A stretch of 51,368 bases of DNA, the filler included, from Streblomastix strix (taxonomy: Eukaryota), in NCBI GenBank assembly GCA_008636045.1. It is 2 parts of 2 records of this genome, joined end to end, with 100 filler letters (N's around TTAATTAATTAA, not from the genome) between each part and the next. Parts side by side here need not be neighbours in the genome. Positions count along the whole stretch, not along the records: positions 25,765 to 51,368 come from SNRW01000196.1; 1 more part is not named here. The stretch is one strand, 5' to 3'. The notes under the pieces are model-generated. The model worked only from the letters and a program-made list of their open reading frames with translations. It was not told the origin of the DNA and ran no database searches. Of this stretch, positions 5 to 50,150 are shown one piece after another (position 1 is the first letter of the stretch; each line of letters begins with the position of its first letter). Made by a program: the position numbers and the translations under genes.

Positions 5-13955
<13,951 letters not shown>

Positions 13956-25664: not shown

Positions 25665-25764
25665 NNNNNNNNNNNNNNNNNNNNNNNNNNNNNNNNNNNN
25701 NNNNNNNNTTAATTAATTAANNNNNNNNNNNNNNNNNNNNNNNNNNNNNNNNNNNNNNNNNNNN
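25665..25764. other. Artificial scaffold/concatenation linker
   Basis: Exactly 44 N + TTAATTAATTAA + 44 N = 100 bp; the 12-mer is a palindromic six-frame standard-code stop spacer. Confidence 0.95.
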
Positions 25765-25886
25765 ATAATATTGTAAATTAATAGCTTAGAATATTCAATA
25801 ATTAGATGAAAAATATAAATAATATTTTAAAATATGAAATTTAATTTTTTATTATTTTTCTTTTATTTCTTATCAAAAATAGAAAC

Positions 25887-26396
25887 ATGGCTATTGTGCC
25901 AAAAGCTTAAACAGGGAAGTGGTAATTTAGTGTTCCAGTTAAATCTCCTGAAGAATAGATGAAAATTTTCATTGATAATATTTCAAAACTATAATCATCC
26001 GATGAATTACCTTAAATTCCAAATTTGAAGCTTCGAAAACGTTAGTATGCAACTGAAGAAGATGCTAGATAAGCTATAAACTATAAGAAGAGGATAGCTC
26101 ATACTAAAGAAAGATAAAGATTAATTAATTATAAATATAATGCTCCGAATTCTTAATTATTACTAATTCAACGTTTGTAAAGAATTGTAATTCCAAATAA
26201 AGATGAATTTGCTTGGATCCATAAAATAATTGATTAATACGATGAGAAAGTTATAAAAATATAGGAATTATTGAGTATTATTGATAAAGATCATGCAGTG
26301 TTTAAAGAATTAGGATATATATAAGAAAATCCTAATAATTCATCTGAAGATGATAATGAACGTGATACTGATGATGATCGTGATAATAATGAGTGA
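25887..26396 (+). CDS. Viral hypothetical protein, 169 aa, basic core with acidic tail
   Basis: MAIVPKAQTGKWQFSVPVKSPEEQ...DDNERDTDDDRDNNE*; open in code 6. Confidence 0.7.
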
Positions 26397-26398
26397 TT

Positions 26399-27022
26399 TC
26401 ACTATAAATCTGTTTCATTAAATCTAACTTCTTATTACTATTAATATTATTTAGGAATTTATTCTTATGGTGGACTTTATATTTGCTCTGCTTATTCATC
26501 GTTAAGTTTCTTTTATTTATAATCTCTTATTTTTGCTTTATATTTCTCAACTTACTTAATAGATTCTTGATGTTATTACTTAATGAATGAGTTTTCTGTT
26601 CGTAAACGTATTAATTCCTCTAAATCTACAGATGGAGAAGTATAATTTATCTATGGCTTCTTCTTTACTGCTTTCATCTGGTTTGGTTTTGGTGTTTGCT
26701 TTGGTTATTCAACGATAATTTATTAAACATCACATTCATCATCGTCATTCTCTATATTCAATGGATAATCTTGCTCATCTTCTGCTTCATCACTGTTTTA
26801 TTCAACATGTCTTTTTAATGTTCGTTTTGGTTTTGTTTAACCTCCACCTCTTGCTTCTAATAATAACTTAGTTTATTATGCTTGAGTTAGAGTTCTTGCT
26901 GCTTTCTTTCCTTCTTCATATACTTTGATCTTATCTTTAACTTACATAATATATCCTTTATAGAAATAGTCGATTGATGTTCCGTTTTCCATGAGATTCT
27001 TAAATGCTTAATCTTGATTCAT
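26399..27022 (-). CDS. Viral hypothetical protein, 207 aa, charged/coiled-coil
   Basis: MNQDQAFKNLMENGTSIDYFYKGYIMQVKDK...VRFNETDLQ*; converges on the previous ORF with a 2-bp gap. Confidence 0.7.
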
Positions 27023-27063
27023 TTTATTAGATACTTATTGATTTTATTTAAACACAAAATTAA

Positions 27064-27891
27064 ATGACAACAATACAAATAAATCAAATTAGAGTTCATA
27101 AAAGCAAACATGCGAGTGTTGTTAAGAAAGAATTATCAGAAGAAGATAAAGCCAGATTATAAGCAATTGATGAAGCTATAACGAATGGATTCAGGAAAGC
27201 TGCGTAAATTCCATAGTTATAAATATAATCTTCTGTTCAGACACCACTATGAAACAGAGATCTAAACACTGATGAGGAAGAAGAACCTTAACGAGAGATA
27301 TAAACAGAAAAACCACGAAAACATCGTTACAATATTAATAAATATAAAGAAGTTCCACGTGAAACAGCTTAGGTTGAACCAGAATAAGTTGTTAAGGATA
27401 CATATTTATCTTATCCTAACTTAGAAGTATAGATTTTCATCATTGATTGCATCTGGAGGTGTGTTGATTCACGAAAGAAAGGTGAGGATTTCATATTTAA
27501 CTCCAACAACTATATCAAAGTCTGGTCATTAATAACATAAGAAGAAGAAAAAGATATTGAGATTGTTATGGAAGAACCACTGATGAAACATAATAGTTAT
27601 ACATCGAAAAAATATAAGAAGAATGAGATTGTAAGAGTTGATGATGTACTCATCAAGAATGTCTCTATATCTAACTTAGATAACGTATTATGGAATAGTT
27701 TTGAGAAGCTGTATCATCTTAGCAAAGATTTCGTTAGATTATCTGACAAGCTAGAATCAGATATTGGCCCAGAGATTTCTGAATATAATATCACTATTAA
27801 ATTGTTTATTTTTGTTGAAAACTAATGGAAGAAGAAGCGTAATAATAAATAACTGACTTGGAGGATCCATCAGAAGAAGAACTATAAATGA
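27064..27891 (+). pseudogene. Viral hypothetical protein (~275 codons) with one in-frame TGA
   Basis: MTTIQINQIRVHKSKH...; internal TGA at 27250-27252, after which the frame continues (IDCIWRCVDSRKKGEDF...) to TGA 27889-27891. Confidence 0.6.
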
Positions 27892-28598
27892 AATCAGAAT
27901 ATGAGAAGATGAAGATATAATAATTAGAAATAGAATCACTATAGAAGTTGTAAAAATAAATAACTTAATAAATAGATAATGAAATTATAAAATGTTTTAC
28001 TTACTTTAGTTAATTCTTTAAGAAATCATCAATATCTGATTTAGTAACATTAAATACAGCTTAAACTATCACTGGAACTAAATCATTTACGTAGCCTATC
28101 ACAGCTAATAAAATCATTAAATTAGCCGGTACAAGTAATTAAATATTATTAGCTAATGGAGATACTATTGATAAAGATTAATTAGATTATAAACCAATTA
28201 AGAATGCACATTATTCAGCAATTGCTTACGGAATGTATGAAACACGAGTATGGGGTACATTAACAACATAAAATAGTAGAGTATATCTTTCAATGCAAAT
28301 AACTCATTCAGATCCAAATACTCTTTGTTAATCAGGATATACTTTATTCTCAATCGTTTATAATGCAATAAAACCAAAATTCAGTGGAACACCAACTAAT
28401 ATGCCATAAAATGCTGTTATGTTTGCGTAAAAAGTATATGGTTATCCAATAGATTGGACTGGTGCAATTCCTATAGATTGTTTTATTAATCTTAATGGTA
28501 ATGTTATAATAAATACAATGTGTTAGATTAATTTACCTAAGGATTTTTATGTTTAAGTATGTGATTCATATGCTATTCATAACTAATCGGCAAATTGA
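27825..28598 (+). CDS. Short fibre/receptor-binding-like protein, 257 aa
   Basis: N-terminal coiled coil, then LVTLNTAQTITGTKSF and ITANKIIKLAGTSNQILLANGDT (motifs typical of phage tail-fibre shafts), then a beta-rich C-terminal head. Frame intact. Confidence 0.65.
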
Positions 28599-28634
28599 TA
28601 TATTTAAAAATAAAATACTCACATTTCACTCAAT

Positions 28635-29033
28635 TCAATTACCATTATAATATGTTTTAAGATTCAATAGCTTCAAATACAATATATATCTCCACATCTT
28701 AGCAAGTTCCTCATCTTATTTTTCTATTGCTTCTTTAACGAATTCCTCTATTTATTCATTTGAATATTTGGACCAATGAAAATAACTTACTTAATTAATA
28801 TTTGGTTTATCAGTACTTTCCATCTTTTGTTTCTTTCTTCTACGATAAACGAATTGAAATATATATAAAATTATATTAATTGGAACTAGAATCACATTAA
28901 AATAATTCCATAATTATTTTATTAATGCAATAATGTCTATTAATTACTTAGGAATTGATAGAGAAATTATAGATACTAAGAAGTTAACTCCATAAAATAT
29001 AGAATTTATTACTATTATTATAATATTTAACAT
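28635..29033 (-). CDS. Small viral membrane protein, 132 aa, two predicted TM helices
   Basis: MLNIIIIVINSIFYGVNFLVSIISLSIP...WNYFNVILVPINIILYIFQFVY followed by RRRKKQK and a soluble tail. Confidence 0.6.
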
Positions 29034-29056
29034 ACGTTTGTTTTATTATAAATATA

Positions 29057-30116
29057 ATGACGTTATCCGAGATATAATCTGTGACTTTCACTGATAATTC
29101 TATGTTAGATGAATATAAAACAAAGCCATTGACAAGGAATTTATTATTTTTAATCAATGGGAATCATTATATAGTTGGTGCAGTTGGTTCAGGAAAAACA
29201 ACTTTATTATGTAAACTTATAGTAATCTACAAGTAAAAAATCAATCCATTCATTTTATATTTCTCTAATTTTGGTGCTGATGAGACTATGGCATTGAATC
29301 TAAACTCTAAGAATATCGTATTGACTAATATAACATACGATGAAGCTATGTATTTCCTTCCTTAATTTGATGAAATTAAATATAAAGTTAAAGAAATATA
29401 TACATACTGGAAGTTAAGTGAAGTAAATGTATCGTACAAATCTGATTACATATAGAGAATGAAGGAAAGAATATTAATAATGAATCTAATAAAATAGAAT
29501 CCAACAAGAATATGCTTCTGCATCACCTGAATAATAATTAGAGAAACCAAAGGATTATGCAAGAAGAATTGCTAAGATATTTCGTTAGGAATGTATCAAT
29601 ATTAAAACGAAATATAGTGTTCCAACAACGATAATGAGATTTACTATTCCTGCTATGATTCATAACGTGTAATTCGAGAGAAAAAAAGAAATATCATAAG
29701 ATGATGGTGATGCTGAATTAAAAGTATCGAAGATTCCTATATTATTTCATAGTTTACTGTTAAATTCATTGTTAATATTTGATGACATAGGAAGTAATGT
29801 TGATATTTAAAGATTCTCCTCAGGATTGTCAAAGACAATAACTCATTTAGTTTCCGACAGTAGACATAGTAAAAATACTGTTTTCTTTGTTGCATAACGT
29901 CCAAGTTACTTATTCAAAACAGCAAGAATATTATCACATGTTATGTGTTTAGGAGTTAATCTATCTGAAAGTGATTTAAAACAAGCTTACGAAGAGAATT
30001 CTATTTAGAATCTTGACTTTGATGACTTTATGTTACTGTATGGTACTCTTAATAAATATGAATTCATAATACTTAATAAGTTGCAGAGTAAATATGAGAT
30101 CTTAAAGAATCAATGA
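29057..30116 (+). pseudogene. A32-like (FtsK-HerA superfamily) DNA packaging ATPase, frameshifted
   Basis: Walker A IVGAVGSGKTTLL, Walker B LLIFDDIG, and SRHSKNTVFFVAQRPSYLFKTARIL (A32-type RH...Q...R motifs). The first frame hits TGA at 29528 and the C-terminal half is in the +1 frame (shift near 29470-29520). Confidence 0.9.
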
Positions 30117-30124
30117 TAATATGT

Positions 30125-31927
30125 ATGATTATATTTATTTTTCTTTATTCAAATATTACATTAGCTAAAACCTTGAGTTAATAATAGATCTAAGTTATTC
30201 GTTCATTAATATAATCAGATTTCCAATATTTGATATAATATTCAAGGAAATCATCAAGTTCTAGCAGTAAATTATCAGGAAGTGAATATTAATTGACGGT
30301 TGATGATTAAAACTCATTAATATATGCACCAATTGATAATACTTAGAATTGAGCAATGAAACTTGAAACTAATGGTGTTATGACATTGAAAAATATAAAT
30401 TTATTAAATAATGATTTCTTAGCGAAAATAACTATATTAGAATAAGAAGTTAACGTATTGTAATAGACATTAGGAACTGCAACTTAAGATATTGGTGGTT
30501 TGCAATAATAAATTAATGTAATTAATGAAGAACTTAATAGATAAACACATTTTAGAGGAAACTATTTATTGAACACAGATATATAATAATTAGAAAACTC
30601 TGCCAATGGTGATTTTGCATTCTCAGCTGAAAGTGGAACAGTATGGATGTATGATAACAGTTGGTATGACAGTGGAGATATAGTTCTTGATTAAGTAACT
30701 CCTGCAAGTGATGTTAATCCATTAATTGATAGTGGAACTGGAGTTGCTGGAACTTCAACTGAGTATTCTCATGATCATTAACATCCACTATAAGTATCTA
30801 CATCATTACCAAGTAAAGATACATCTGTTGGTACTATCGGCTCAGCTAGTTCTTATGCAAGATCTGATCATTAACATCCAATTCAGACTGTAGATACTAT
30901 TCCAGTTAGTGATTCAGCAGATGGATCTTATGGTACTGTTGATTTATATGCTAGAAATGATCATTCACATCCAGTTAATGTACAAACTAATGCTTCAATT
31001 ATACTTATAGTTAATGGAGTTGAAAATAATGGTACTTCAGCATTTTATTCAAGACATGATCATGTTCATCTTTAGTAATTGACTTATGATGGTAACGTTA
31101 CAGCTACTAAATTTATTAAGACAGGTGGATTAGCAACAGAAATACTATGCGCTAATGGTGATACAAAAGCTATATCTGATATTGATAGTGATTCAGTTAA
31201 AAAGACATGCAAATCAATATAAATCGTATAAAGATATCTACGTTATGGTGGAAAACCTCCATAAGATGATGATGAAGAATCGGATTCCTCTGATGATGAT
31301 GATTATTAAACTAGAGGCAAAATATATAGTTAATATGTAAATAAAACATAAACTGAAACAATAGTTGCAAGAAAGACATTTAAAAATGATTAATTTTAGT
31401 TATAACCAATAGGTATAACAAAACCATTAATATTATTCGCTAGTAACTCATCTAATTATTGTTGTGAATAAATGTTAAATGAAAATGAGCTAATGATATC
31501 ATATAATTCAGCATAGACAAACTAAAATTTTTACATTAACTTCAGTGATACTGTTTTATCAGGGACTTACCCCAATGCTAAAATACTATAACGTTTTATA
31601 TTAAATGCTGGTACTTCTACATCTTTTGCAAGCATTACTTCTGGTAATATGTAAATAAATCCTACAGCAACTAGTTATGATGATGGCTTGAGAATATCAA
31701 GAACTGATCCAGATACAGGTAATTCATCAATTTAATTAGGCTGTTGCAGAACATCAAACACTGTTACAATTGTAGGATAATGGACAATATTTACACCGCC
31801 AAATACTGCTATTTAAAACTCCTAAAGTTTTGTTATAGCATCAGCATATTAAGCTGGAGATAATACTAGAGGATTATAAATTAGTGCTGATGGAAACACA
31901 TTAACTTTCAATGATAGAGTACTATGA
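30125..31927 (+). pseudogene. Long phage-tail-fibre-like protein (~600 codons) with four DHxH repeats; one in-frame TGA
   Basis: Coiled coil, then GVAGTSTEYSHDHQHP, GSASSYARSDHQHP, GTVDLYARNDHSHP, GTSAFYSRHDHVHL and VTATKFIKTGGLATEILCANGDT. TGA at 30350-30352, with an in-frame ATG at 30356. Start codon uncertain. Confidence 0.75.
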
Positions 31928-31964
31928 GACTCTTAATATTATTTAATTTATTTTTCCTAGAAAC

Positions 31965-32414
31965 ATGTCAAAACCACATAAATAATTATTCACTGAACTA
32001 GCAAAAACAAACTATGAAGACGAAGGTTTAATAAGAACATCGATAGAAACACTATAAAATCTGCTGATGAAAAATAAATAAGATTCATAACATATATTAC
32101 TAAAGGAATTAATAAGAATTAGTAAGTAATTCACAATATAATAGAGTAAATTATATTCAATGAAATAATTTGTTAATGATGAAGACTATAAAAATAAAAT
32201 ATATGGTGAGAATAATAAGTACTATGCAAATGAATATAACCAAATCAAGAAGAAAATGGATTTGAATCAATATCCATAATAAATAAAGAAATATATTATA
32301 TCTGAAGCAACTGATGATGAAAAATAGATATATAATTAATTTGTTATGGATGTAGATAATCAACTATTTTGTGCATATTATCAATTAACTTAGCTTAGCG
32401 TATCTAAATATTGA
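31965..32414 (+). CDS. Viral hypothetical protein, 149 aa
   Basis: MSKPHKQLFTELAKTNYEDEG...QLSVSKY*; open in code 6. Confidence 0.65.
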
Positions 32415-32614
32415 AGATAACCTATGATTTCTTAAGTTTTATCTGATATAATACCAAATCTTTCACATTCTTATTTTTTTTAATCATAGTACTATTATTG
32501 AAAATCATCTAATTCCTCATCATCAATCAATGTCTCAAATATTTTAAACACTTCATAATCAGAAGCATTATGTTCTTTTCCTAATGCTTAAGCAAAATAA
32601 TATAAATCGTCCAT
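32381..32614 (-). CDS. Viral hypothetical acidic protein, 77 aa
   Basis: MDDLYYFAQALGKEHNASDYEVFKIFETLIDDEELDDF...*; 3' end overlaps the previous ORF by 34 bp. Confidence 0.55.
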
Positions 32615-32679
32615 TGATGAATTTATTATTAGAAAAATAATTTTTAAATATATTCAATTTTTGTAATTAATTTTAATTA

Positions 32680-32886
32680 TCATCTCTTATTTAAGTGTCT
32701 ATTTATTCCTCCAGTAATGTTACCAACTGTATTCATAACTGCACCAGCACCTGAATGCAACATGCTTACTGGTCCACTTAAAGTTCCCATTACTTTATGG
32801 AGCGTAGGGGCAACCCAGCCAGCAACTTTCTTAATACCACCTAATATCTTACTTCCGAAATTTTTCAAACCAGAGAAGAATCCCAT
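32680..32886 (-). CDS. 68-aa amphipathic cationic peptide, putative membrane-penetration protein (adenovirus pVI-like helix)
   Basis: MGFFSGLKNFGSKILGGIKKVAGWVAPTLHKV...; Gly/Lys/hydrophobic periodicity, no acidic residues, N-terminal MG; divergent from the putative MCP. Confidence 0.75.
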   Translation of the reverse strand: MGFFSGLKNFGSKILGGIKKVAGWVAPTLHKVMGTLSGPVSMLHSGAGAVMNTVGNITGGINRHLNKR

Positions 32887-32975
32887 ATTGAATTTAATTT
32901 GATTTTCTTGTTTGTGTATTTGTTTAAATAATAAAACTTACTTACTGTTTTAAATTCTAAGTAAATCAAACTAAT

Positions 32976-34922
32976 ATGAGTTTATCAGCATGTGATTATA
33001 TATAAAAATTAGCTCATGTTTAACATTCTGATTATATATCTACTTATTCAGCGATGTCAGAAGTATTAAGATAAGCATCAATTCATCCATAGAGTTTCTA
33101 ACTAAGTAGAAAAGAATTCTTTGATTAACCTGTATCTTAACTAACAATTGATGGATAAAGATATACTAGAGCTCCATTAGGTGCAAGAGGTAATACTACT
33201 TGTTCAATAGCATAATCATGTTAAGTTAGTTGGTAAATTACTATCCCTGCGGAGAGATTAGCATTATAACTTAATAAAGCAGCAACTGCAGCAGCTGCTA
33301 CTGCTGAATTGGCTAGAGATAGAGTAAATTTCAATGGATTAATTGATCCATAAGCAGAGTGGGTTCGTACTATGCGAGTTGGTGCTGATGATAATGAATT
33401 ACCAATCAATGATGACGAACGTATTAAGCTATGGATTGGTTATTCAACAGCTTGTGGACCATTCTAATAAATAGCAATCAGTAAAGATAATATAAAGCTA
33501 TGGGAAACATCTATTTATGCTAGAGAATAAGCAGTAATAGCTGCAAATTCATTATCAGATGAATGTACCAGGAATTCTGTCAGTGTATCATCATTTGAAT
33601 CAATAGTTAGAGGAAGAAGACATTGTGGAATCTTCTTAGATATTCCTGTTTCAGAGTTTGCTGCAGCAAATTTTAATTATAAGTTTCCATTTGATATAAT
33701 AATTACTGGAGTACTTGATTTAAACTAGTTAAATCCAATATTCAATTCATTTCCAGTGTTAACACGTAACTATGCATCGCTATATTTATAGTTGTGGACT
33801 TAAGATTTCCTATAAGATCTGAAGGTTGTATATTTGAATAAGTCTAATACATATACGAATACACATCTTGCTTACTAAATGATTCCACCAGAGAAACCTG
33901 ATCTATTTTACCTTTTAAATACAGCTGGAAGTGCTTATGCACCATATAACGTAAGAATTGTTAATATGGAAGGTAATCTAGCTACTGAAAAAAAGCCTAC
34001 AAATTCAATAAGTTAAATTAAGGATGCTAGATTCAATAATTTAGATATTATTAATGTTGGTTTCAATATGGAGAATGAAGAAGTTATCATTGATATGATA
34101 AGAACTCAAAAAATATTGAATTTCCCAACGTAAATTATACGTACATAATCAACTAATTTCCCATTTTGAGGATTCATAGCTAGTGGTGGTTCTATGTAAA
34201 GTATAATGTCATTATTAAACATAAAATCTATGTTTATTACATTTGCTATGAACTAATATCCAACTTGGTTTTTCCCAGTGTTATTTTAAAGGTTCAATTT
34301 GGAAATTGATCAGCGACATCTTATTTAATAAGACTATGTATCGTTGAATCCAACTGTCACTTCATAGATGTTCGAATGCTTTGTTGAATAAGACTTAGTT
34401 TCTGCACCATCAGATTTATATCATTCATTGAATTTCCAAAATCGAACTATAAATGAAGGAGAGAGTAAGTTTTACTATGGGCGTGTTGGTAATATCTAAG
34501 AAACAGAGAATATCTTCTATAATACTACGTTATCTGTAGGTAGTAAAGCAGTAAAAATATATTATCCTCATAAATTCATGCTTGCTTGGAAGATAGCAAC
34601 TGATGATTCATTCAGGAGAGGATATAATGTGTCTAAAATGGGTGCTAGAACTAATATATATGTTAGTTTATCAGGCTCTTTAACAGAAGGAATCGTCGGT
34701 ACTGAGTTGATTAAATTGACTCCCGAAGAAAATCAAAACAATCTTATTTCATTTATTGCAACAAGAGCATATCCTACTCCAACATATGCCTAGATAACTC
34801 CTCAGATGCACTATCTATGTGATGCTATCATTAGATTTACCTTTGATGATGCACCTGATCGATAGGTTTTAAACTTTGAAATCATTGGTGAAGTTGGTGG
34901 AACTATGATAAGAATTGGATGA
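32976..34922 (+). pseudogene. Putative major capsid protein (double jelly-roll), 648 codons, one in-frame TGA
   Basis: Largest non-enzymatic ORF of the element; complex sequence with alternating hydrophobic beta-strand patterns and no low complexity; lies near the ATPase and fibres. TGA at 34167-34169. The fold is inferred from size and context only. Confidence 0.65.
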
Positions 34923-35231
34923 ACATTGAAAAATACTCACTTCGTGTATTAATTATTTTTGTTAATTATAAACATGGAAAATCAAATAATATCCTTTGCA
35001 GAATTAATAATTATTAATGATCCAATACTATGTATATTAAGCTAATTATAAATAGAAAAATTAAACAAGAGCTTGGAGCTTGGTGTTCGAGGTCTTTGAA
35101 ATTCATATTTTTATTTTAAATAATTAATTTCCGTTTTTTTATTAAAAAAAGTATTTCTTTTTTTTTATTATTCTTCTTAATTATTCATAATTAAACTTTT
35201 TTTAAAAACTTCATTTTAGATATTTGGCAAA

Positions 35232-37931
35232 ATGGCACAAAGTTAAAAAGGTTCATAATTATCTCCCAAGGAAATGTATATCAAATCAAAAATCACTGAT
35301 TATTCTCCATAAGAACGAGAATAAATAACTGTACTCTACTTTAAAATGGCTGATAGACTACATCTTGACTATAATAAGATGCTAGAAGAAGCTGAATCAC
35401 ATCGTAATGATTCAGTAGAAGAGCGTAATATATTCAGCTCTTATAAGTTTTCGAGTTATCTTCTTGCTCTGACGGAAGATTACGATTATTATACATCAAA
35501 AGAACTTACTCCACGAATTTCCGAGAAACTGATATAATTATATGATTTCAAGAAATTCAACGATGAAATTACTCCATTAGAAGATGATGTGTAGGAAAAA
35601 CCAGTAAAAACTAGGAAAATTACTGGAAAAGCTATAAATATTGCTGATTGCCCATACTTAGCTATTGTTGATATAGATATTGACAAGAAACTAAGTGAAG
35701 AAGATAGAAACCTCATAAGAAATGAACTCTTAGAGAAGATTTATCAATCAGAATTAAACGTAGCCTTAGTTAAAAACTGGTCATTGAGGTTTACATATAT
35801 ATTGTAATATGGATCCTCTAATTCTACTTGCTGGGAATACAATGGTTAAAAAATAGCTACTGAGAAATACGATGTAGATATATTTGCTTGTGTAGATTCC
35901 AATGAAAGTAAGAGATGTATTGTTTTACCTGATTCAAGAATCAAAGACTTTGAATATAATACAGTAACTAAGAGATAATAACCAAAATAACCAAATCAAA
36001 TATTTAAATACGAGAAGTTAGGAAATTCGAAAACAAAATTTGATAAAAAGAAAGATCTAAGTCTCATATCATAAGTATGATAAGTACTTGGATTTGATAT
36101 TGAGCTTATAAAATACCATGAATAACCAGAATAAGATGATAAAGTTAGTTATGATGTTAATATGACGAAATAATAAGCTGATATATTAATAAATGGTCTT
36201 AACAATCTAATTATTCATAATTATGCTGCTAAATCAGAGAAAGAAACTACTCTATTTAAGTTATTTTCATCAGTTAATGGAATGAAAGCTATTGCTCATG
36301 TTGACCTATAGTGGAATAATGAAGCTTATAATAAAATTAGTTAAATTCAAGGTCTAACTATCAAAGCAAGATCAAACTTCGATAGAAATCGTATTAGACT
36401 TGCTGAAAGATCATGTACTCTTCATTATATAGAGAAAATAGTTAGATTAACTGATGAAGAGTATTACAATAGTGAATACTTACCAACTGTCTACGACAGA
36501 GCGAAGCCTGAAGTTAAATCGGACGATACTAAATCAAAATCAAGTAGTAAATCTAACAATGATGATGATATCATTGATCTAGCAAAAATTACAGTAAATG
36601 ATATTGATTTAACTGACTAATTTGAGTTAGCAGATATATGAACTAAGATTAGTAAAGGAGAATATGAGTGTGTTGAAGATATTGTATCTGATATGACTAA
36701 GATAATGAGATATATACACTCTGATACGGTAACATTCTTATTCAAATAATATAATAATCTTGAAAAGAAATATATTTTCGTTCGGAAAAGCGAATCATGT
36801 GCATAAGATATATTAAACATGATTCCAGCACATTTTAATAGAAAGAAGTCTAAAACACTGTGGTAATTAGCTACAGCATATAATTAGATATTCTTAATTA
36901 GGAAGGTTGAATTTAAAAGTGATGATACAGATGTATTTTCCATGTTTTAAGGCTGGAAATATCACGAACTTGAGCAAATAAACATGGATTTAATACAACC
37001 ATATCCAGATCATATAAAATAAGTAATTTCTTCCAATGATACAACTGTTTATGAATACATTTTGAAATGATATGCATTGATAATATAACTTCCAGAATAA
37101 CAGACACGTGTATCAATGATATTAAGAGGTGGATAAGGCTGTGGTAAAAATACTTTTACTGATGTACTGTCTGAGTTAATATCTGGTTATTCATTAAGAA
37201 ATATTACTTCATTAACATCAGTGACTGGCTAATTCAATTCTATCTTGAGTAATAGAGTATTTATAGTGCTTAATGAGCTTACAACATTCAGTTCTTCTAT
37301 TAGTCATGAAGTTGATAAGTTAAAATCATTGATATCAGATCCAACTCTTGAAATTCGTACTATATTCTCTAATTCACGTGTTGAAAAGAACTTATTAAAT
37401 TTCATTTTAGTATCCAATCATTTAGATCCTGTTCATTTAGACCAAGATGATAGAAGATACTTAGTATGTTAATATGATTCTAAATATACGAAGAATACTT
37501 AATATTTCAACAATCTATTTCAACATATAAATCAAGAAGGTTTCTATGATAATCTCATAATTTACTTTCATAAATTAGATATTTCATAGTTTGACGCTAG
37601 AATCATCCCAATGACTGAGGCTAAAAAGGAAATTATCGAAGTATCATTAACTGACATTGATATATTCTGTATTTAATATTTCAAATAGTTAAAAGTTGGT
37701 TGGTTATGCGATGAAGCACTAAGATATTATCCAGATTCTATTAAGCCATAAAACTTCAGATTATAAATTCATAAGAACTGTGAAACTATAAGACAACATC
37801 GTATGAAGAAACAACTTAGATTGTATAAGATTAAGGAGGATAAAATAGCTGAACTAGAATAGTATGTTGAAGATGATGATAATGAATTGATTATTAATGA
37901 GATTAATGAAGAACACTAAAATACATTATGA
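35232..37931 (+). pseudogene. Primase-polymerase (AEP/Prim-Pol) fused to D5-like SF3 helicase, 899 codons, disrupted
   Basis: Prim-Pol motifs AIVDIDI, VKTGHxGLHIYC (displaced to the +1 frame), DVDIF, CIVLPDS. Helicase Walker A LRGGQGCGKNTF, Walker B VFIVLNE, motif C FILVSNH and DDRRY. In-frame TGA at 36078, 36639 and 37068. Confidence 0.9.
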
Positions 37932-37977
37932 TTTTGTATTCTCATAGTAAATTCATTATAAATTATCATTTTTGAAC

Positions 37978-38485
37978 AGAAGGGAATTATGACGAGGTTC
38001 TAATGCAAACTAACATAGTATTACTGATAATGAAACACATAGGAATTCATAAAGAAAATTATTTTTGCACCATGTTTTAACTTACAAAACTCTTATTCTA
38101 TAGTCAAATCTCTTACTTAACCAATAATCAACAGTCATTTCTCTTATCAAGAGCACTTTCATCGAATAAATATCTTACAGCGTATTATCTCATGTCAATT
38201 ACCTTTTCAATTTTATTTTTATAAACTCATTTGACCTCGAGCACCGAGCACCACGACACACTTACTTTTTCAATAAAATTTCAAAAATGACTTATACCTA
38301 CTTTTCTCATTTTATTTTCAATTTTAATTATTAATAATTATTTTCATCAAATTCAATCTTATTCCATTTTCATCAACTTTGCCGATAATTCATGCATTAT
38401 TTTAATTTTCATTATTTTTCCCATTATTTTTCATAAAGCACCGCTAAAATCACACTTGCCATCAACTTCGTCATAATTCCCTTCT
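37978..38485. repeat. 22-bp inverted repeat pair (37978-37999 / 38464-38485)
   Basis: AACCTCGTCATAATTCCCTTCT (- strand) vs AACTTCGTCATAATTCCCTTCT (+ strand), 21/22 identical. Confidence 0.85.
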
Positions 38486-41219
38486 AACATTATATTATAT
38501 TATACCATAATTTACTTTATTTTAAACAATGAATTAAGAATAATTAAAACAAAATAAGTTTGATAAATAAGAATTAAAAAAATGAGGCAACAATGATTTG
38601 ATAATTTTAAATTAGAAATATTTCTTGTTGCACCCAAGATTATCTATGAAAATTCCTATATAAAATAGCATGAAGTGAATTTTTCTAACGATCCATGATG
38701 AAATTTCACTTTCAAAAGTTAAATCTTGCATCTTATGTTCGCATATTCAAATAAATATAAATAATTGTCAATTATATCTCAATATTTTTTATAAATCAAA
38801 TTATATTAATGAATTTTATTATATATTGATATTAGCCTGATTAATATATATTTTCAGATAAAAAAAAGTTAATTTGGAATTTGTTATTAATTTAAGAAAT
38901 ATTGATTAATTTTATGGTTCACACATCTAATTATTAAAATCGTAAAATATTTTATTAAAAATATTATAAGTAAATATAATAATTAAAACTACAAATGCTG
39001 CAAAACAGAAATGAAAAAAATAATTTATATACATTCATCAGAATATAATAAAGAAAATTGAAGTAATTATTAGAATAAATGAATAATCTTATCGACATAA
39101 AAATATAAAAGGAGCATATTTATTTAGTATTAAGTGAATTAAGAAGGAATCTTTTCTCAAAAAAATAGAAATGATATATTGAAGTAATAGATGTATTATT
39201 ATATGTAAAAATCAGTTATTCTGATAAAAATGTTAATTTAGATACAGTATAGTATTGTAAATAATATATATTTATATTTAAAGGCGCAAGAATCGAATTT
39301 TATGATTATAAGGCTTAAACATAGTAATAAATATAATGATCAGTTCGATACGAAATATGATAACCTTATAAATTAAAAAAAATAACTAAAAATTGAGATA
39401 GAAAAAATGCGTCCTTGAATAATCAACTTTTAATGCGTTTTTTTGATATAGCCGCGTACCCCAAAGAGGAGGTCATGCCTTGAATATTGTGGAGTTTAGA
39501 ATAGTTTATTTTGGTGTCTTACATCGATTTATCGTCGATATCAGACATGTCTCATATTTTTGTCAAAATATCACGGCGTTTTGTCAAGATATTATCCCTT
39601 GTCAAAACCTTACATTTTAATAATATAAAAGATTACTAATTTAATTAATTGTAAATAAATTAAAATATTATATTTAATATGCAAAAAATTAATTATTAAT
39701 ATTCAATGTTAGTACTAAAATCCTTGAAAATAAGAATTTCAATTTTTTTCAAATTTTTGGAAAAAACATTAGATTGTGAACCAACAAATATCTTTAATAA
39801 CTTAACCAACATATATTTCAAAAGTAGAATTTATAATATTTAAAAAATTTTAATATAAATTTTAAAATAAATAGAAATCAAAAGTGTAGTTCTGACTTCA
39901 CCGCTGGTTTTTGTTTCACCAATAACTCTATATTTTTCAACAATTTGAATATATTTGCCAGATTTAATTTGGATTGTAGAGTATTGTATGCGGATTGAAC
40001 TATCCAAATATTTTTGCGTATGATATTATTTTAATAAAATTTTAATAGAATTTAATCGGAAATATTTAATATTTTATTTTATTATTTCTATTATTCTGCA
40101 TATATGCAGTTATCGTCGATCTCTTAAAATATTGAATGTAATATTGATTCATTATAATTTATTTATTTTAACGATTTTAATATTTATTTTCAAATAAGTA
40201 TATAATTACTCATCGGTATAAGCTGGAATAATTGGATCAATAATTTATTTTTTAGCCATTCCAGGTTCTTTAGCTTCAGATAAACCTTTTTTAATAGGTT
40301 TATTTTAATTGAAACATAATAAATAAAGAAAATTAAGTTTAAATTATAACTATGTTTAAATTGTACATTTTGATTATACATATAAATAATGCGAACGAAA
40401 ATATGCATTTGGTTTAAATTAATGAATAGCATGACTGATAATGAATAATGTATTGGATTGATGAAGTACGTAAGTGAAGTTCATTATTGAATTGTATTCT
40501 TTGGATGTATGGCACTCTCCATATTTTCATAACAACATAGGAAAGTTAATTAGGAACGTTAATGGATTTGATTAATGAATTTGACTATTGGAAGTCTAAA
40601 ATTTAGTGAGGTTGATACGCTGAAATCAACAGCAGGCGGAGGTCTTACCGACTTGATGAATTCATTGTATTTTGAACATAAATGTATGAAATTGACACGA
40701 GAAATCGATATGGTTAATGATTGTCTATAAAATTATCAGGGTGCAAATAACTTGAGGGTATTTCTAACTCATTATAGAAAATAACTGTAAATATGTCAAT
40801 ATGCCAATTGATTGGATATATTAATACATTTCTAATGGCTAGAACTAAAAAATAAATCTATTTGCATTTCAAACGTTGAATGACTAAGGCTTGATTTATC
40901 CATTATAAATTCAATTTTTTCATCTCAATCCATCTCATCTTTTAACAATTCGAGCTAAGTATAATGTTTTTGTTTTAATTTGTAGCTCTATTAACAAATT
41001 GAATATTTTTATATCTTTTTTATGCTCACAATATGTTTTAATTCCAATCACAAAAAATAATTATTTCATATTGTAGTTTAAATTATGAAGCACTAGCATA
41101 TACAATACTTAATTTAAATTTATCAATATCTTTTAATTTTACATCTTTTATCTATGTTTTATTAGCTTTAATTTTATCACGTTTTGCATCTATCATAGGT
41201 AATTGTCACATATAGAACT

Positions 41220-42080
41220 CCTTCAAAACTTATTACATAAAGAAAATAAATAAATTATTATAAAAATTTTAACTTAATTATTACACAATTCTTAAAGATA
41301 TTTATTATCTCCTTTATAAATTAAACTACATTTTAAGACAACATTCCTAATTTGAATTTATAATTGCATTTAAGTTTGCTATTATTTTTGCTATTATTCC
41401 AGAGATTATTAATGCAGTGCAAATTTTAACAAAACTTAATAATAAAAATTCTTCTATTCTTCAGATAATGGTAATGATTGAGCAATTTATTCTAATTATT
41501 AATTCAATCCCAAAAGAAAATATATTTATTATGAGTTGAATAAATCAGATTATTATTAATCTTATTATTATATCTGATATTTATTAAGAACAGGTGTAGA
41601 CATTATAGATTTGGATTATTTCTATATTTGATTATCTTCTATTTATTCTTTTTATTTATCTACAAATTCTTTTGCATTCTTTTCCAACTATATTTAATTT
41701 TGAGTTTATTACGCTGTTTAGGAAGACGACTATTTCTCAACTTATTTCAGCTTAAATTCCTCATTTAGTTTCTATCTCAATGATTCCTACAATTTTTATT
41801 ATTACATCTATTCATCTTCAAATATATTAGGAGAAAGAAGCTATGTTATATTGAGTAATTGATCAAAAATAAGTGAGACAGGAGAAAATGCATGAGATAA
41901 TATTCTGGATATTGATCTAGCTTGAATCCGTTATTATGATTATTTAGATAGATAAAGTGCTTTAATTAGTGTCTTTATCATCATATTGGCCTACGACAAT
42001 GATATATACATTGACTGAGTTCCATAATTAATCTAATCATTTGCCTTCCTTTCTCCATGCTAACTCTATTTTTAACAAGT
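41220..42080 (-). pseudogene. Gln-rich host-type coding fragment of unknown function
   Basis: Long open code-6 frame (...QARSISRILSHAFSPVSLIFDQLLNITQLLSPNIFEDEQ...) with no clear start; boundaries approximate. Confidence 0.35.
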
Positions 42081-42331
42081 TTTATAAAGTTTTAAAACAT
42101 TCATTCATTTCGCAAACAATTTTTAAAGATTTGCACCAATAATAAAAATAAAAAAAGATTTAAAATTACATTTGTATTATTTATTAAAGTTTCAATGAAC
42201 TATTTACTTAATTAGGCATCGTGTAAAAAAAATAAGATGATCAATAACTTAAACAACGAGATAAAAACTCCTGAATAAATCAAGACTTGAGATTTAACAC
42301 CCATAAATTCATCATCCAATTTATGTTAATC

Positions 42332-49299: not shown

Positions 49300-50150
49300 G
49301 ATAATATTTGTCACTAAATGATGTTGATATACAAATAATATAAGACTATCTTTATCTTACCAAATAAGTTATTACTGCAAAAAATGAAGAGATTTATTTA
49401 TATTTAATAAATTGGATATTATGAATAGTTCCAAATCTAGAAAAACATACAATGGTTGCTATAGTTCATAGAGAAATTTAATATTCATGTAGAAATACAT
49501 TTGTAAATGTTTAGCGGAGCTATTTAATGGATACTATTAACCCAATTTAATAGACTTTAAAGATTTAACAGGATATTTGACTTAAACTACAATTGAAGCA
49601 AATGTTTTTGCAGTATGTAATGATGTACAAATTTGTGATGATTAAGATATTCATACATCAAGAGTTATGAAATCAGTAATTACTGATGATAAAATGAAAG
49701 TTGGCGAAAATTATAAGCCAAAAGATTGAGTAAATAATCAAGTAAATCAAATTTTTTTTTCAAACCATGCAAACCTACATAAGTAGAATAATATGATAGA
49801 AGATATATAGCTTTACATGTTAATGATGTACTTTAAAATAACAAGGAGTTATTCAAGAGAATTCATAGGAATATAAATTAAAAGTTATATGATAACTTAA
49901 TGACATTGTTTTTTAAGAGAGGTTTATCAAATTTTAATTTAATAGAGAATCTTCCTATAATTGAAGCAAAATTAGAAAATTAATGTGCTTCAAGAACAGC
50001 ATTTTATTATTTTATAATGAATTGTGTACCCTAATTGCAGAAATTAATGATTTATTAAGATGCTTTCTAAAACTAACCAAGAGAAATGAAGTTGAAAAAC
50101 TTCAAAACATCACATAAATTCTACCGCAAGAGAAAGAAAATTACAAAATA
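49300..50150 (+). pseudogene. Heavily decayed second D5-like SF3 helicase
   Basis: Across frameshifts: EEIYLYLINWI, degenerate Walker A (...CRNTFVNV), AELFNGY, VFAVCND, MKSVITDD, IFFSNH, DRRYIAL, YDNLMT; colinear with the helicase at 37000-37650. Confidence 0.7.

Follow-up and report, generated by a model that had tools for sequence, protein, structure and literature searches.

The present study examined a window of 51,368 nucleotides (the whole stretch of DNA analysed, filler included) from the genome of the termite-gut oxymonad Streblomastix strix, in which positions 25765-38485 hold a virus-like element with genes for a predicted major capsid protein, an A32-type packaging ATPase and a putative primase-helicase. 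The family to which this copy belongs is large and has relatives outside this host, and the copy itself is laden with pseudogenes, a context missed by the earlier note, which had been made from the sequence alone. We favour, with fair though far from complete confidence, the reading that a repeated Polinton-like virus (PLV) of S. strix, likely integrated, is represented here by a decayed copy, and that this virus belongs to a lineage likely separate from the published ones. The earlier note had proposed a Polinton-like endogenous virus with a mosaic gene set; the capsid, the A32 ATPase, the primase-helicase and the use of genetic code 6 (TAA and TAG, together TAR, read as Gln) agree with that proposal, but the phage fibres and the pVI-like peptide that it included are unsupported. 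The novelty probably lies in the capsid lineage, in its relatives that use the standard code and in a conserved peptide of 68 amino acids (aa).

Capsid gene and its predicted fold

The 648-codon beta-rich open reading frame (ORF) for which a double jelly roll had been anticipated likely encodes a predicted double-jelly-roll capsid protein, the fold having been found in the model of a homolog, but an in-frame TGA at 34167-34169 breaks the frame itself. Searches by sequence against Pfam, PHROG (run on the two halves of the capsid gene), NCBIfam and PDB gave no significant capsid match, and the Sputnik-capsid family of Pfam matched none of 52 proteins (family members and outside relatives). The first half of the capsid gene retrieved 290 homologs; among the 120 listed, 119 were S. 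strix proteins and one was the window's own, and 12 had already been auto-named 'Major capsid protein' in UniRef.

The protein modelled was P0016, an intact homolog 69% identical to the capsid gene of the window, with an alignment of 85 rows that included outside relatives. The resulting AlphaFold2 model (pLDDT 85, pTM 0.88) replaced a first model from 42 S. strix rows, which had reached pLDDT 44 and given weak capsid hints. Foldseek against PDB returned 223 matches at E<=0.001, with the capsids of PBCV-1 (3.5e-12), mavirus (1.1e-9) and Sputnik (1.5e-9) in the lead and those of EhV-201 and an iridovirus also present, and Foldseek against BFVD returned adomavirus LO7, virophage and pithovirus capsids. 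Moreover, the best 50 rows from VIA-align were all double-jelly-roll capsid or scaffold proteins at 5-10% identity, led by PBCV-1 (Z 15.5, root-mean-square deviation 3.4, 334 aligned) and followed by faustovirus (14.9), mavirus (12.4) and Sputnik (11.5). The Atlas model of a relative, P0224, had TM scores of 0.43-0.56 to capsid clusters. The predicted fold withstands the refutation that the earlier note had named first, a 648-aa ORF lacking a jelly roll.

A capsid family in S. strix with relatives in metagenomes

Among the 120 listed capsids, 14 were 640-660 aa long and 55-91% identical to each other, with the variation among near-full-length copies concentrated in loops. One cluster at 90% identity comprised 29 members, 5 of the 15 listed being 652 aa long, and capsid copies were located on S. 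strix contigs of up to 40.6 kb. Two S. strix gene models, P0108 and P0130, are fusions, one joining a capsid to an HNH endonuclease and the other a helicase fragment to a reverse transcriptase, which suggests an HNH gene neighbouring some copies and retrotransposon insertions into elements.

A profile search of 1.84 billion representatives yielded 213 capsid matches at E<=0.001, with long relatives from outside S. strix among the 150 listed. These outside relatives occur in metagenomes at 21-31% identity, and four of them (P0211, P0284, P0224 and P0228) lie on contigs of 20.0-21.8 kb; no further relatives were found in IMG/VR, GTDB genomes or GenBank phages. One scan of metagenomes provided three loci (L001, L002 and L003), of which L002, spanning 13.4 kb and open in table 11, encodes a capsid, a homolog of the 68-aa peptide, an A32 ATPase, three paralogous genes of ~200 aa, a 701-aa penton candidate and a 542-aa fibre-like ORF. 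For the penton candidate, features matched only weakly (0.91, V18-19 on 10% of one cluster), the model reached a pTM of 0.22, and the window contained no match. Neither a primase-helicase nor pPolB, an integrase or a protease was recognised in L002, an incomplete contig. The paralogous genes form a tandem array of three ORFs (5380-7293, plus strand; 201-222 aa, 27-30% identity, no Pfam match) between the ATPase and the penton candidate, and at the end of the contig (64-363) a unit of 105-122 bp is repeated 2.6 times in tandem, possibly as a terminal repeat or origin.

A quick, unrooted maximum-likelihood tree of 36 rows (25 from S. strix and 11 from outside, fragments excluded) placed the 25 S. 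strix rows on one side of a long branch (SH-aLRT 100) and the 11 outside rows on the other. One invasion of the host would fit this tree, which does not prove it.

Packaging ATPase and putative primase-helicase

The two halves of the frameshift-split ATPase share 34% and 28-31% identity with the ATPases of L001 and L002, and the Walker A, Walker B, RH and QR columns are conserved. Pfam Pox_A32 matched neither half from the window, and its cut-off was passed by four of the seven ATPase relatives scanned. The window ATPase is thus assigned to the A32 type through its relatives; the motifs that the earlier note had called unambiguous are present, but in a broken gene.

The helicase part of the putative primase-helicase matched DUF5906 (E 1.6e-18), PHROG primases (E 1e-16) and PDB 6k9e (E 2e-34), and homologs of the gene (P0121-P0123) are 81-87% identical to it. 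Three TGAs stand in frame in this gene, together with a compensated pair of frameshifts that moves putative AEP motif II to another frame, where a stop cuts it. The DxD, His and Asp motifs of the N-terminal part, which is putatively an AEP domain by its motif consensus, can be read cleanly only in homolog P0121. Of the Prim-Pol/SF3 motifs described earlier as unambiguous, the SF3 helicase therefore stands, but the Prim-Pol is ambiguous in this copy. A further S. strix contig, 6,512 bp long, carries a capsid gene (EZS28_019530) and a helicase gene (EZS28_019531) as neighbours.

Genetic code and decay of the copy

In the standard code (code 1), positions 25765-38485 contain a single ATG-initiated ORF of at least 80 aa (27568-27825). 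In code 6, 11 gene units cover 10,797 bp, or 85% of the element, so that the dense packing noted earlier is real but involves 11 units rather than twelve ORFs, and the gene of the 68-aa peptide, which has no TAA or TAG, is open in both codes. In code 1, the capsid gene runs without a stop for at most 97 of its 648 codons, and the helicase for at most 91 of 899. Gln is written as TAA or TAG at 34 of its 39 positions in the capsid gene; the helicase has such codons at 39 of 51 and fibre-like ORF 2 at 35 of 38, and in four long ORFs on the left contig the share is 80-84%.

In columns where the capsid gene has TAA or TAG, the 11 outside relatives have Gln in 21.6% of 329 cells, as against 4.0% of 5,834 cells in columns of non-Gln codons; for the ATPase the corresponding values are 12.9% of 62 cells and 2.5% of 2,201, the cells being in neither case independent. 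Gln thus recurs opposite these codons, and the genes would therefore have been translated in code 6 before they decayed. That the host's TAR=Gln code hides the genes, as had been claimed, is correct here but not new, being in print for S. strix viruses (PMC10120064).

Stops or frameshifts interrupt the capsid, ATPase and primase-helicase genes, and the copy at 25765-38485 is unable to make its own capsid, ATPase or replicase. Reading TGA as Trp was rejected: homologs have differing residues at the four TGA positions, and these TGAs are therefore nonsense mutations rather than an additional code change.

Amphipathic peptide, fibre-like genes and remaining ORFs

The 68-aa peptide shares 37-41% identity with the peptides encoded beside the capsid genes of L001 and L002 (phmmer E 4.4e-8 among 16 ORFs), which is more than the capsids share (27-28%), and four further gene models of S. 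strix also have it beside the capsid gene. Its net charge is +8, and its hydrophobic moment was matched by 14 of 10,000 shuffles. These properties make the peptide a candidate for a membrane-active protein inside the virion. Adomaviruses and adintoviruses offer precedents for small core proteins that act on membranes, and adenovirus protein VI, adomavirus LO6 and the adintovirus 'cupiennin' and GasderminX resemble the peptide in being small, amphipathic, cationic and encoded beside the major capsid gene (bioRxiv 10.1101/341131). The specific designation as a pVI-like entry peptide did not hold up: Pfam had no match, and the peptide profile aligned in PDB with residues 40-53 of adenovirus pre-pVI at E 1.1-2.5 (3 of 10 rows), which is not significant and serves as a sub-threshold lead only. 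Unlike adenovirus pVI, the S. strix peptide is only 68 aa long and lacks a propeptide, its amphipathic helix beginning right at the N-terminus, and it would therefore need no protease.

Two ORFs have a fibre-like layout, as the earlier note had seen, but their supposed phage origin is unsupported, as phage matches were found for neither (tblastn for ORF 1). Fibre-like ORF 1 has a short motif in common with the 542-aa ORF of L002 (E 0.019), and its best PHROG match is phrog_14531 (E 0.001), of unknown function. Fibre-like ORF 2 comprises four repeats of 31-33 aa with an HxH motif and a variable distal part, and a dip in summed depth lies within it at 31185-31726. All features are listed in Table 1.

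Table 1. Features of the element and of the adjoining assembly join, in window coordinates
Feature	Position	Strand	Basis or remarks
Assembly join	25665-25764	.	N44 + 12-bp linker + N44
169-aa ORF	25887-26396	+	Basic middle, acidic tail; no significant Pfam, PHROG or NCBIfam match
207-aa Gln/Glu/Lys-rich ORF	26399-27022	-	No Pfam, PHROG or NCBIfam family
Frame of ~275 codons with one in-frame TGA	27064-27891	+	No significant Pfam or NCBIfam match
Fibre-like ORF 1, 257 aa	27825-28598	+	Predicted coiled-coil start, then beta-rich part; putative fibre role
Small ORF, ~62 aa from internal Met of a 132-aa frame	28635-28823	-	No Pfam family
A32-type packaging ATPase, frameshift-split near 29500-29510	29057-30116	+	Identity to L001/L002 ATPases, motifs
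Fibre-like ORF 2, 523 aa	30356-31927	+	Predicted coiled-coil start; putative fibre role
149-aa ORF	31965-32414	+	No Pfam, PHROG or NCBIfam family
68-aa cationic amphipathic peptide gene, divergent from capsid gene	32680-32886	-	Conservation in L001/L002
Major capsid protein gene, predicted double jelly roll, 648 codons	32976-34922	+	Homologs, AlphaFold2 model of homolog, Foldseek
Putative AEP primase-polymerase fused to NrS-1/DUF5906-type SF3 helicase	35232-37931	+	Pfam, PHROG, PDB, motifs
508-bp unit	37978-38485	.	22-bp inverted repeat (1 mismatch) at bounds, 3-bp direct repeat outside

Boundaries and genomic context

Positions 25765-51368 represent one whole contig of 25,604 bp that carries the capsid gene, and the element starts where this contig starts. 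Its left part is therefore absent, as the earlier note had recognised, and adjacency to the left 25.7 kb of the window is unproven; two mapped contigs extend 111 and 74 bases beyond the left edge. No integrase, penton, protease or pPolB was recognised in the visible 12.7 kb, in agreement with the earlier note, but absence from the virus cannot be claimed, as the contig end cuts the copy and L002 has a penton candidate.

Contigs from four runs in three studies, one run possibly being the source sample, were mapped onto the element. In the best run, the summed depth, which does not equal copy number, was 8,340-75,434 across 25765-38772, save for two dips, and fell to 686 in the following bin. 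The right boundary is thus bracketed by the drop between bins 38231-38772 and 38773-39314, at a resolution of 542 bp. Just inside it, the inverted-repeat arms that bound the 508-bp unit start with AG, end with CT and are unique within the window; the unit may be the right terminus or an inserted miniature inverted-repeat transposable element. No long terminal inverted repeat was found within 25765-39500, and Rfam had 0 matches in 25765-51368.

The right flank (12.9 kb, contiguous) is AT-rich, with a GC content of 22.2% against 27.5% in the element, has a much lower summed depth, and contains microsatellites and a Gln-rich, TAR-coded ORF (41223-42104). For CpG, the observed/expected ratio rises from 0.36 at window positions 1-25664 through 0.57 in the element to 0.86 in the right flank. 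The left contig (1-25664) holds four long code-6 ORFs (899-1,987 codons) on the minus strand, which are Gln/Ser-rich and presumably host genes.

Several further observations concern the flank. A second, frameshifted SF3/DUF5906-type helicase relic at 49302-50127 (plus strand), 25-33% identical to the helicase family of the element (E 4e-20), is the remains of a different virus-like element. Positions 40399-41271 are repeated (summed depth 10,589 in bin 40399-40940), with contigs that join 31956 to 40512, and a weak helicase-like match lies at 40915-41271 on the minus strand (E 3e-4). Bin 39315-39856 had a high summed depth in two of the runs only and no Rfam match.

Relation to published viruses and alternative explanations

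Viruses of S. strix written in the host code have already been reported, having been found by PSI-BLAST from Trichomonas vaginalis capsids, and their share of the genome has been estimated at ~11% (PMC10120064), the only study found to treat S. strix viruses in a literature search. All 820 published S. strix capsid matches belong to cluster MMPC_40, whose S. strix references reach ~553-562 aa and share ~32% identity with T. vaginalis capsids (PMC10120064). Together with MMPC_12 and MMPC_41, this cluster makes up the Metamonada group, for which the criterion is clustering with DUF4106-type Trichomonas capsids at 25% identity over 30% of the length. The element resembles these Metamonada (MMN) viruses of S. 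strix, Trichomonas and Entamoeba in host, host code and high copy number, and in having a double-jelly-roll capsid recognised by structure only (PMC10120064). It is accordingly conceivable, though unlikely, that the element is a divergent MMN member already counted among the 820 matches, so that only its gene map would be new. Several comparisons speak for a separate family: its capsids are ~650 aa long against 528-586 aa for full-length MMN-type representatives (Table S3 of PMC10120064); DUF4106 matched none of 52 proteins (0 of 42 family members and 0 of 10 outside relatives), in a search run without a positive control; neither six locus tags nor two motifs of the family occur in the examined part of the supplement of PMC10120064, which excludes S. 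strix contig rows; and, unlike in MMN, the metagenomic relatives of the family at 21-31% identity are not named Trichomonas-type, with none of the 150 listed among the 213 profile matches recognisable as a Trichomonas-type full-length capsid, in a library that is itself nameless. These comparisons of length, DUF4106, tags, motifs and profile matches are all indirect, which weakens the case for separation, as do two likenesses: the top Atlas feature match of P0224 was a 583-aa cluster whose commonest taxon is Parabasalia, and the spacing of motifs is by eye similar to that in printed MMN sequences (PMC10120064). From these two likenesses it follows that the family and MMN are probably distant kin, and the likeliest position of the family is that of a distant sister of MMN. 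The 650-aa capsid family is thus probably a second S. strix family beside the ~555-aa Trichomonas-type cluster.

With regard to wider frameworks, the double-jelly-roll capsid (in the homolog model), the A32-like ATPase and a replication gene, by which PLVs in the broad sense are recognised, were all found; the polymerase/primase-helicase fusion in place of pPolB, the 15-25-kb size class and the likely integration in a protist are further likenesses (10.64898/2026.06.19.733378). Unlike broad-sense PLVs, the incomplete fragment shows no penton or integrase, and its capsid matches no Pfam, NCBIfam or PHROG family. A primase-helicase instead of pPolB is common in PLVs (PMC10120064; bioRxiv 10.64898/2026.06.19.733378). 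The gene set earlier described as unusual owes its apparent oddity partly to truncation. The framework preprint leaves Metamonada elements ungrouped, and its main text makes no mention of Streblomastix (10.64898/2026.06.19.733378). Sputnik, mavirus and Maverick-Polintons share the capsid fold (Z 11.5-12.4 to Sputnik and mavirus) and the ATPase class with the element; capsid identity to virophages is 8-10%, and the fit to them is no better than that to PBCV-1 or faustovirus. Unlike virophages and Maverick-Polintons, neither the visible part nor L002, both incomplete, has a recognisable cysteine protease, pPolB or rve integrase.

Two other explanations dispense with an integrated virus in the full sense. 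The family could spread mainly as an intragenomic transposon, its capsid module being baggage or rarely used and the 22-bp inverted repeat being a mobile terminus; the very many copies, mostly fragmentary or broken, and the position of that repeat at the right end would suit this idea. It is nevertheless improbable, more so than membership in MMN, given that 14 near-full-length capsids among the 120 listed align at 55-91% identity with their variation in loops, that a recent subfamily has several full-length copies, and that capsid, peptide and ATPase are kept together in the distant relative L002. Still less credible, and indeed very unlikely, is the idea that the sequence came from a free virus, or from some other code-6 organism of the gut, whose DNA was amplified together with that of the cell without being integrated in S. 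strix. Such a source would be compatible with the record of the assembly as a metagenome-assembled genome, with the start of the element at a contig end and with a right flank in which 0 of 17 segments matched a Pfam family and no host gene was recognised. It sits poorly with the stops and frameshifts in three essential genes, with the 12.9 kb of low-depth, AT-rich flank containing a TAR-coded ORF, microsatellites and a second helicase relic, and with copies on contigs of up to 40.6 kb, one gene model being fused to a reverse transcriptase.

The reading of the element as a decayed, likely integrated PLV of a separate lineage also has further points to its disadvantage. Only eight S. strix primase-helicase clusters were found (in a length-limited search) and the 13.4 kb of L002 have none, and the primase-helicase replicon may therefore not be typical of the lineage; its AEP domain, moreover, has no support from Pfam or PDB. 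In the incomplete element, no integrase, whole-element target-site duplication, left terminus, penton or protease was seen. The tree is a quick one that came with a long-branch warning, and the standard code of the relatives was checked at the DNA level for L001-L003 only.

Proposed life cycle and implications

In intact members, the genome would be replicated in the nucleus by a primase-polymerase/helicase fusion rather than by pPolB, and the A32 ATPase would pump the DNA into an icosahedral shell of ~650-aa capsomers. The shell would be closed by a penton (none occurs in the fragment) and decorated by fibres with variable tips for attachment, and the cationic amphipathic peptide inside the capsid might breach a membrane at entry. 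New copies would be inserted by an integrase encoded in the left part, which is not visible here, and would then decay. The capsid fold, the ATPase class, the helicase and the code are shown or predicted by the analysis, and the virions, the penton, the integrase and the role of the peptide are parts of this life cycle that we infer. On the evolutionary scale, a standard-code ancestor may have invaded once, followed by recoding and radiation in the host, a scenario proposed because of the tree and the Gln codon usage.

A broader proposal, for which the arguments appear to us evenly balanced, is that the family represents an unnamed deep lineage of ~20-kb double-jelly-roll protist viruses with 600-700-aa capsids, outside the described PLV, Polinton and virophage groups. 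Its core would consist of the capsid, the A32 ATPase and the 68-aa peptide as a protease-independent counterpart of the lytic helix of adenovirus pVI, and one branch would have recoded ~85% of its Gln codons to TAA/TAG in S. strix, where hundreds of copies would exist beside MMN.

If this is true, genomes in the standard code and in code 6 would form a matched pair within one virus lineage. Metamonad PLVs are hard to place in current frameworks because their capsids are so divergent (10.64898/2026.06.19.733378), and a second, larger S. strix capsid family with metagenomic relatives would supply bridging sequences; it would also lift the viral share of the S. strix genome above the ~11% published (PMC10120064). 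The conserved amphipathic peptide would be a concrete candidate for membrane crossing, assayable as a synthetic peptide. Furthermore, the standard-code and code-6 branches would offer a testable case of a eukaryotic virus adopting the reassigned code of its host, an adoption that would confine the virus to such hosts.

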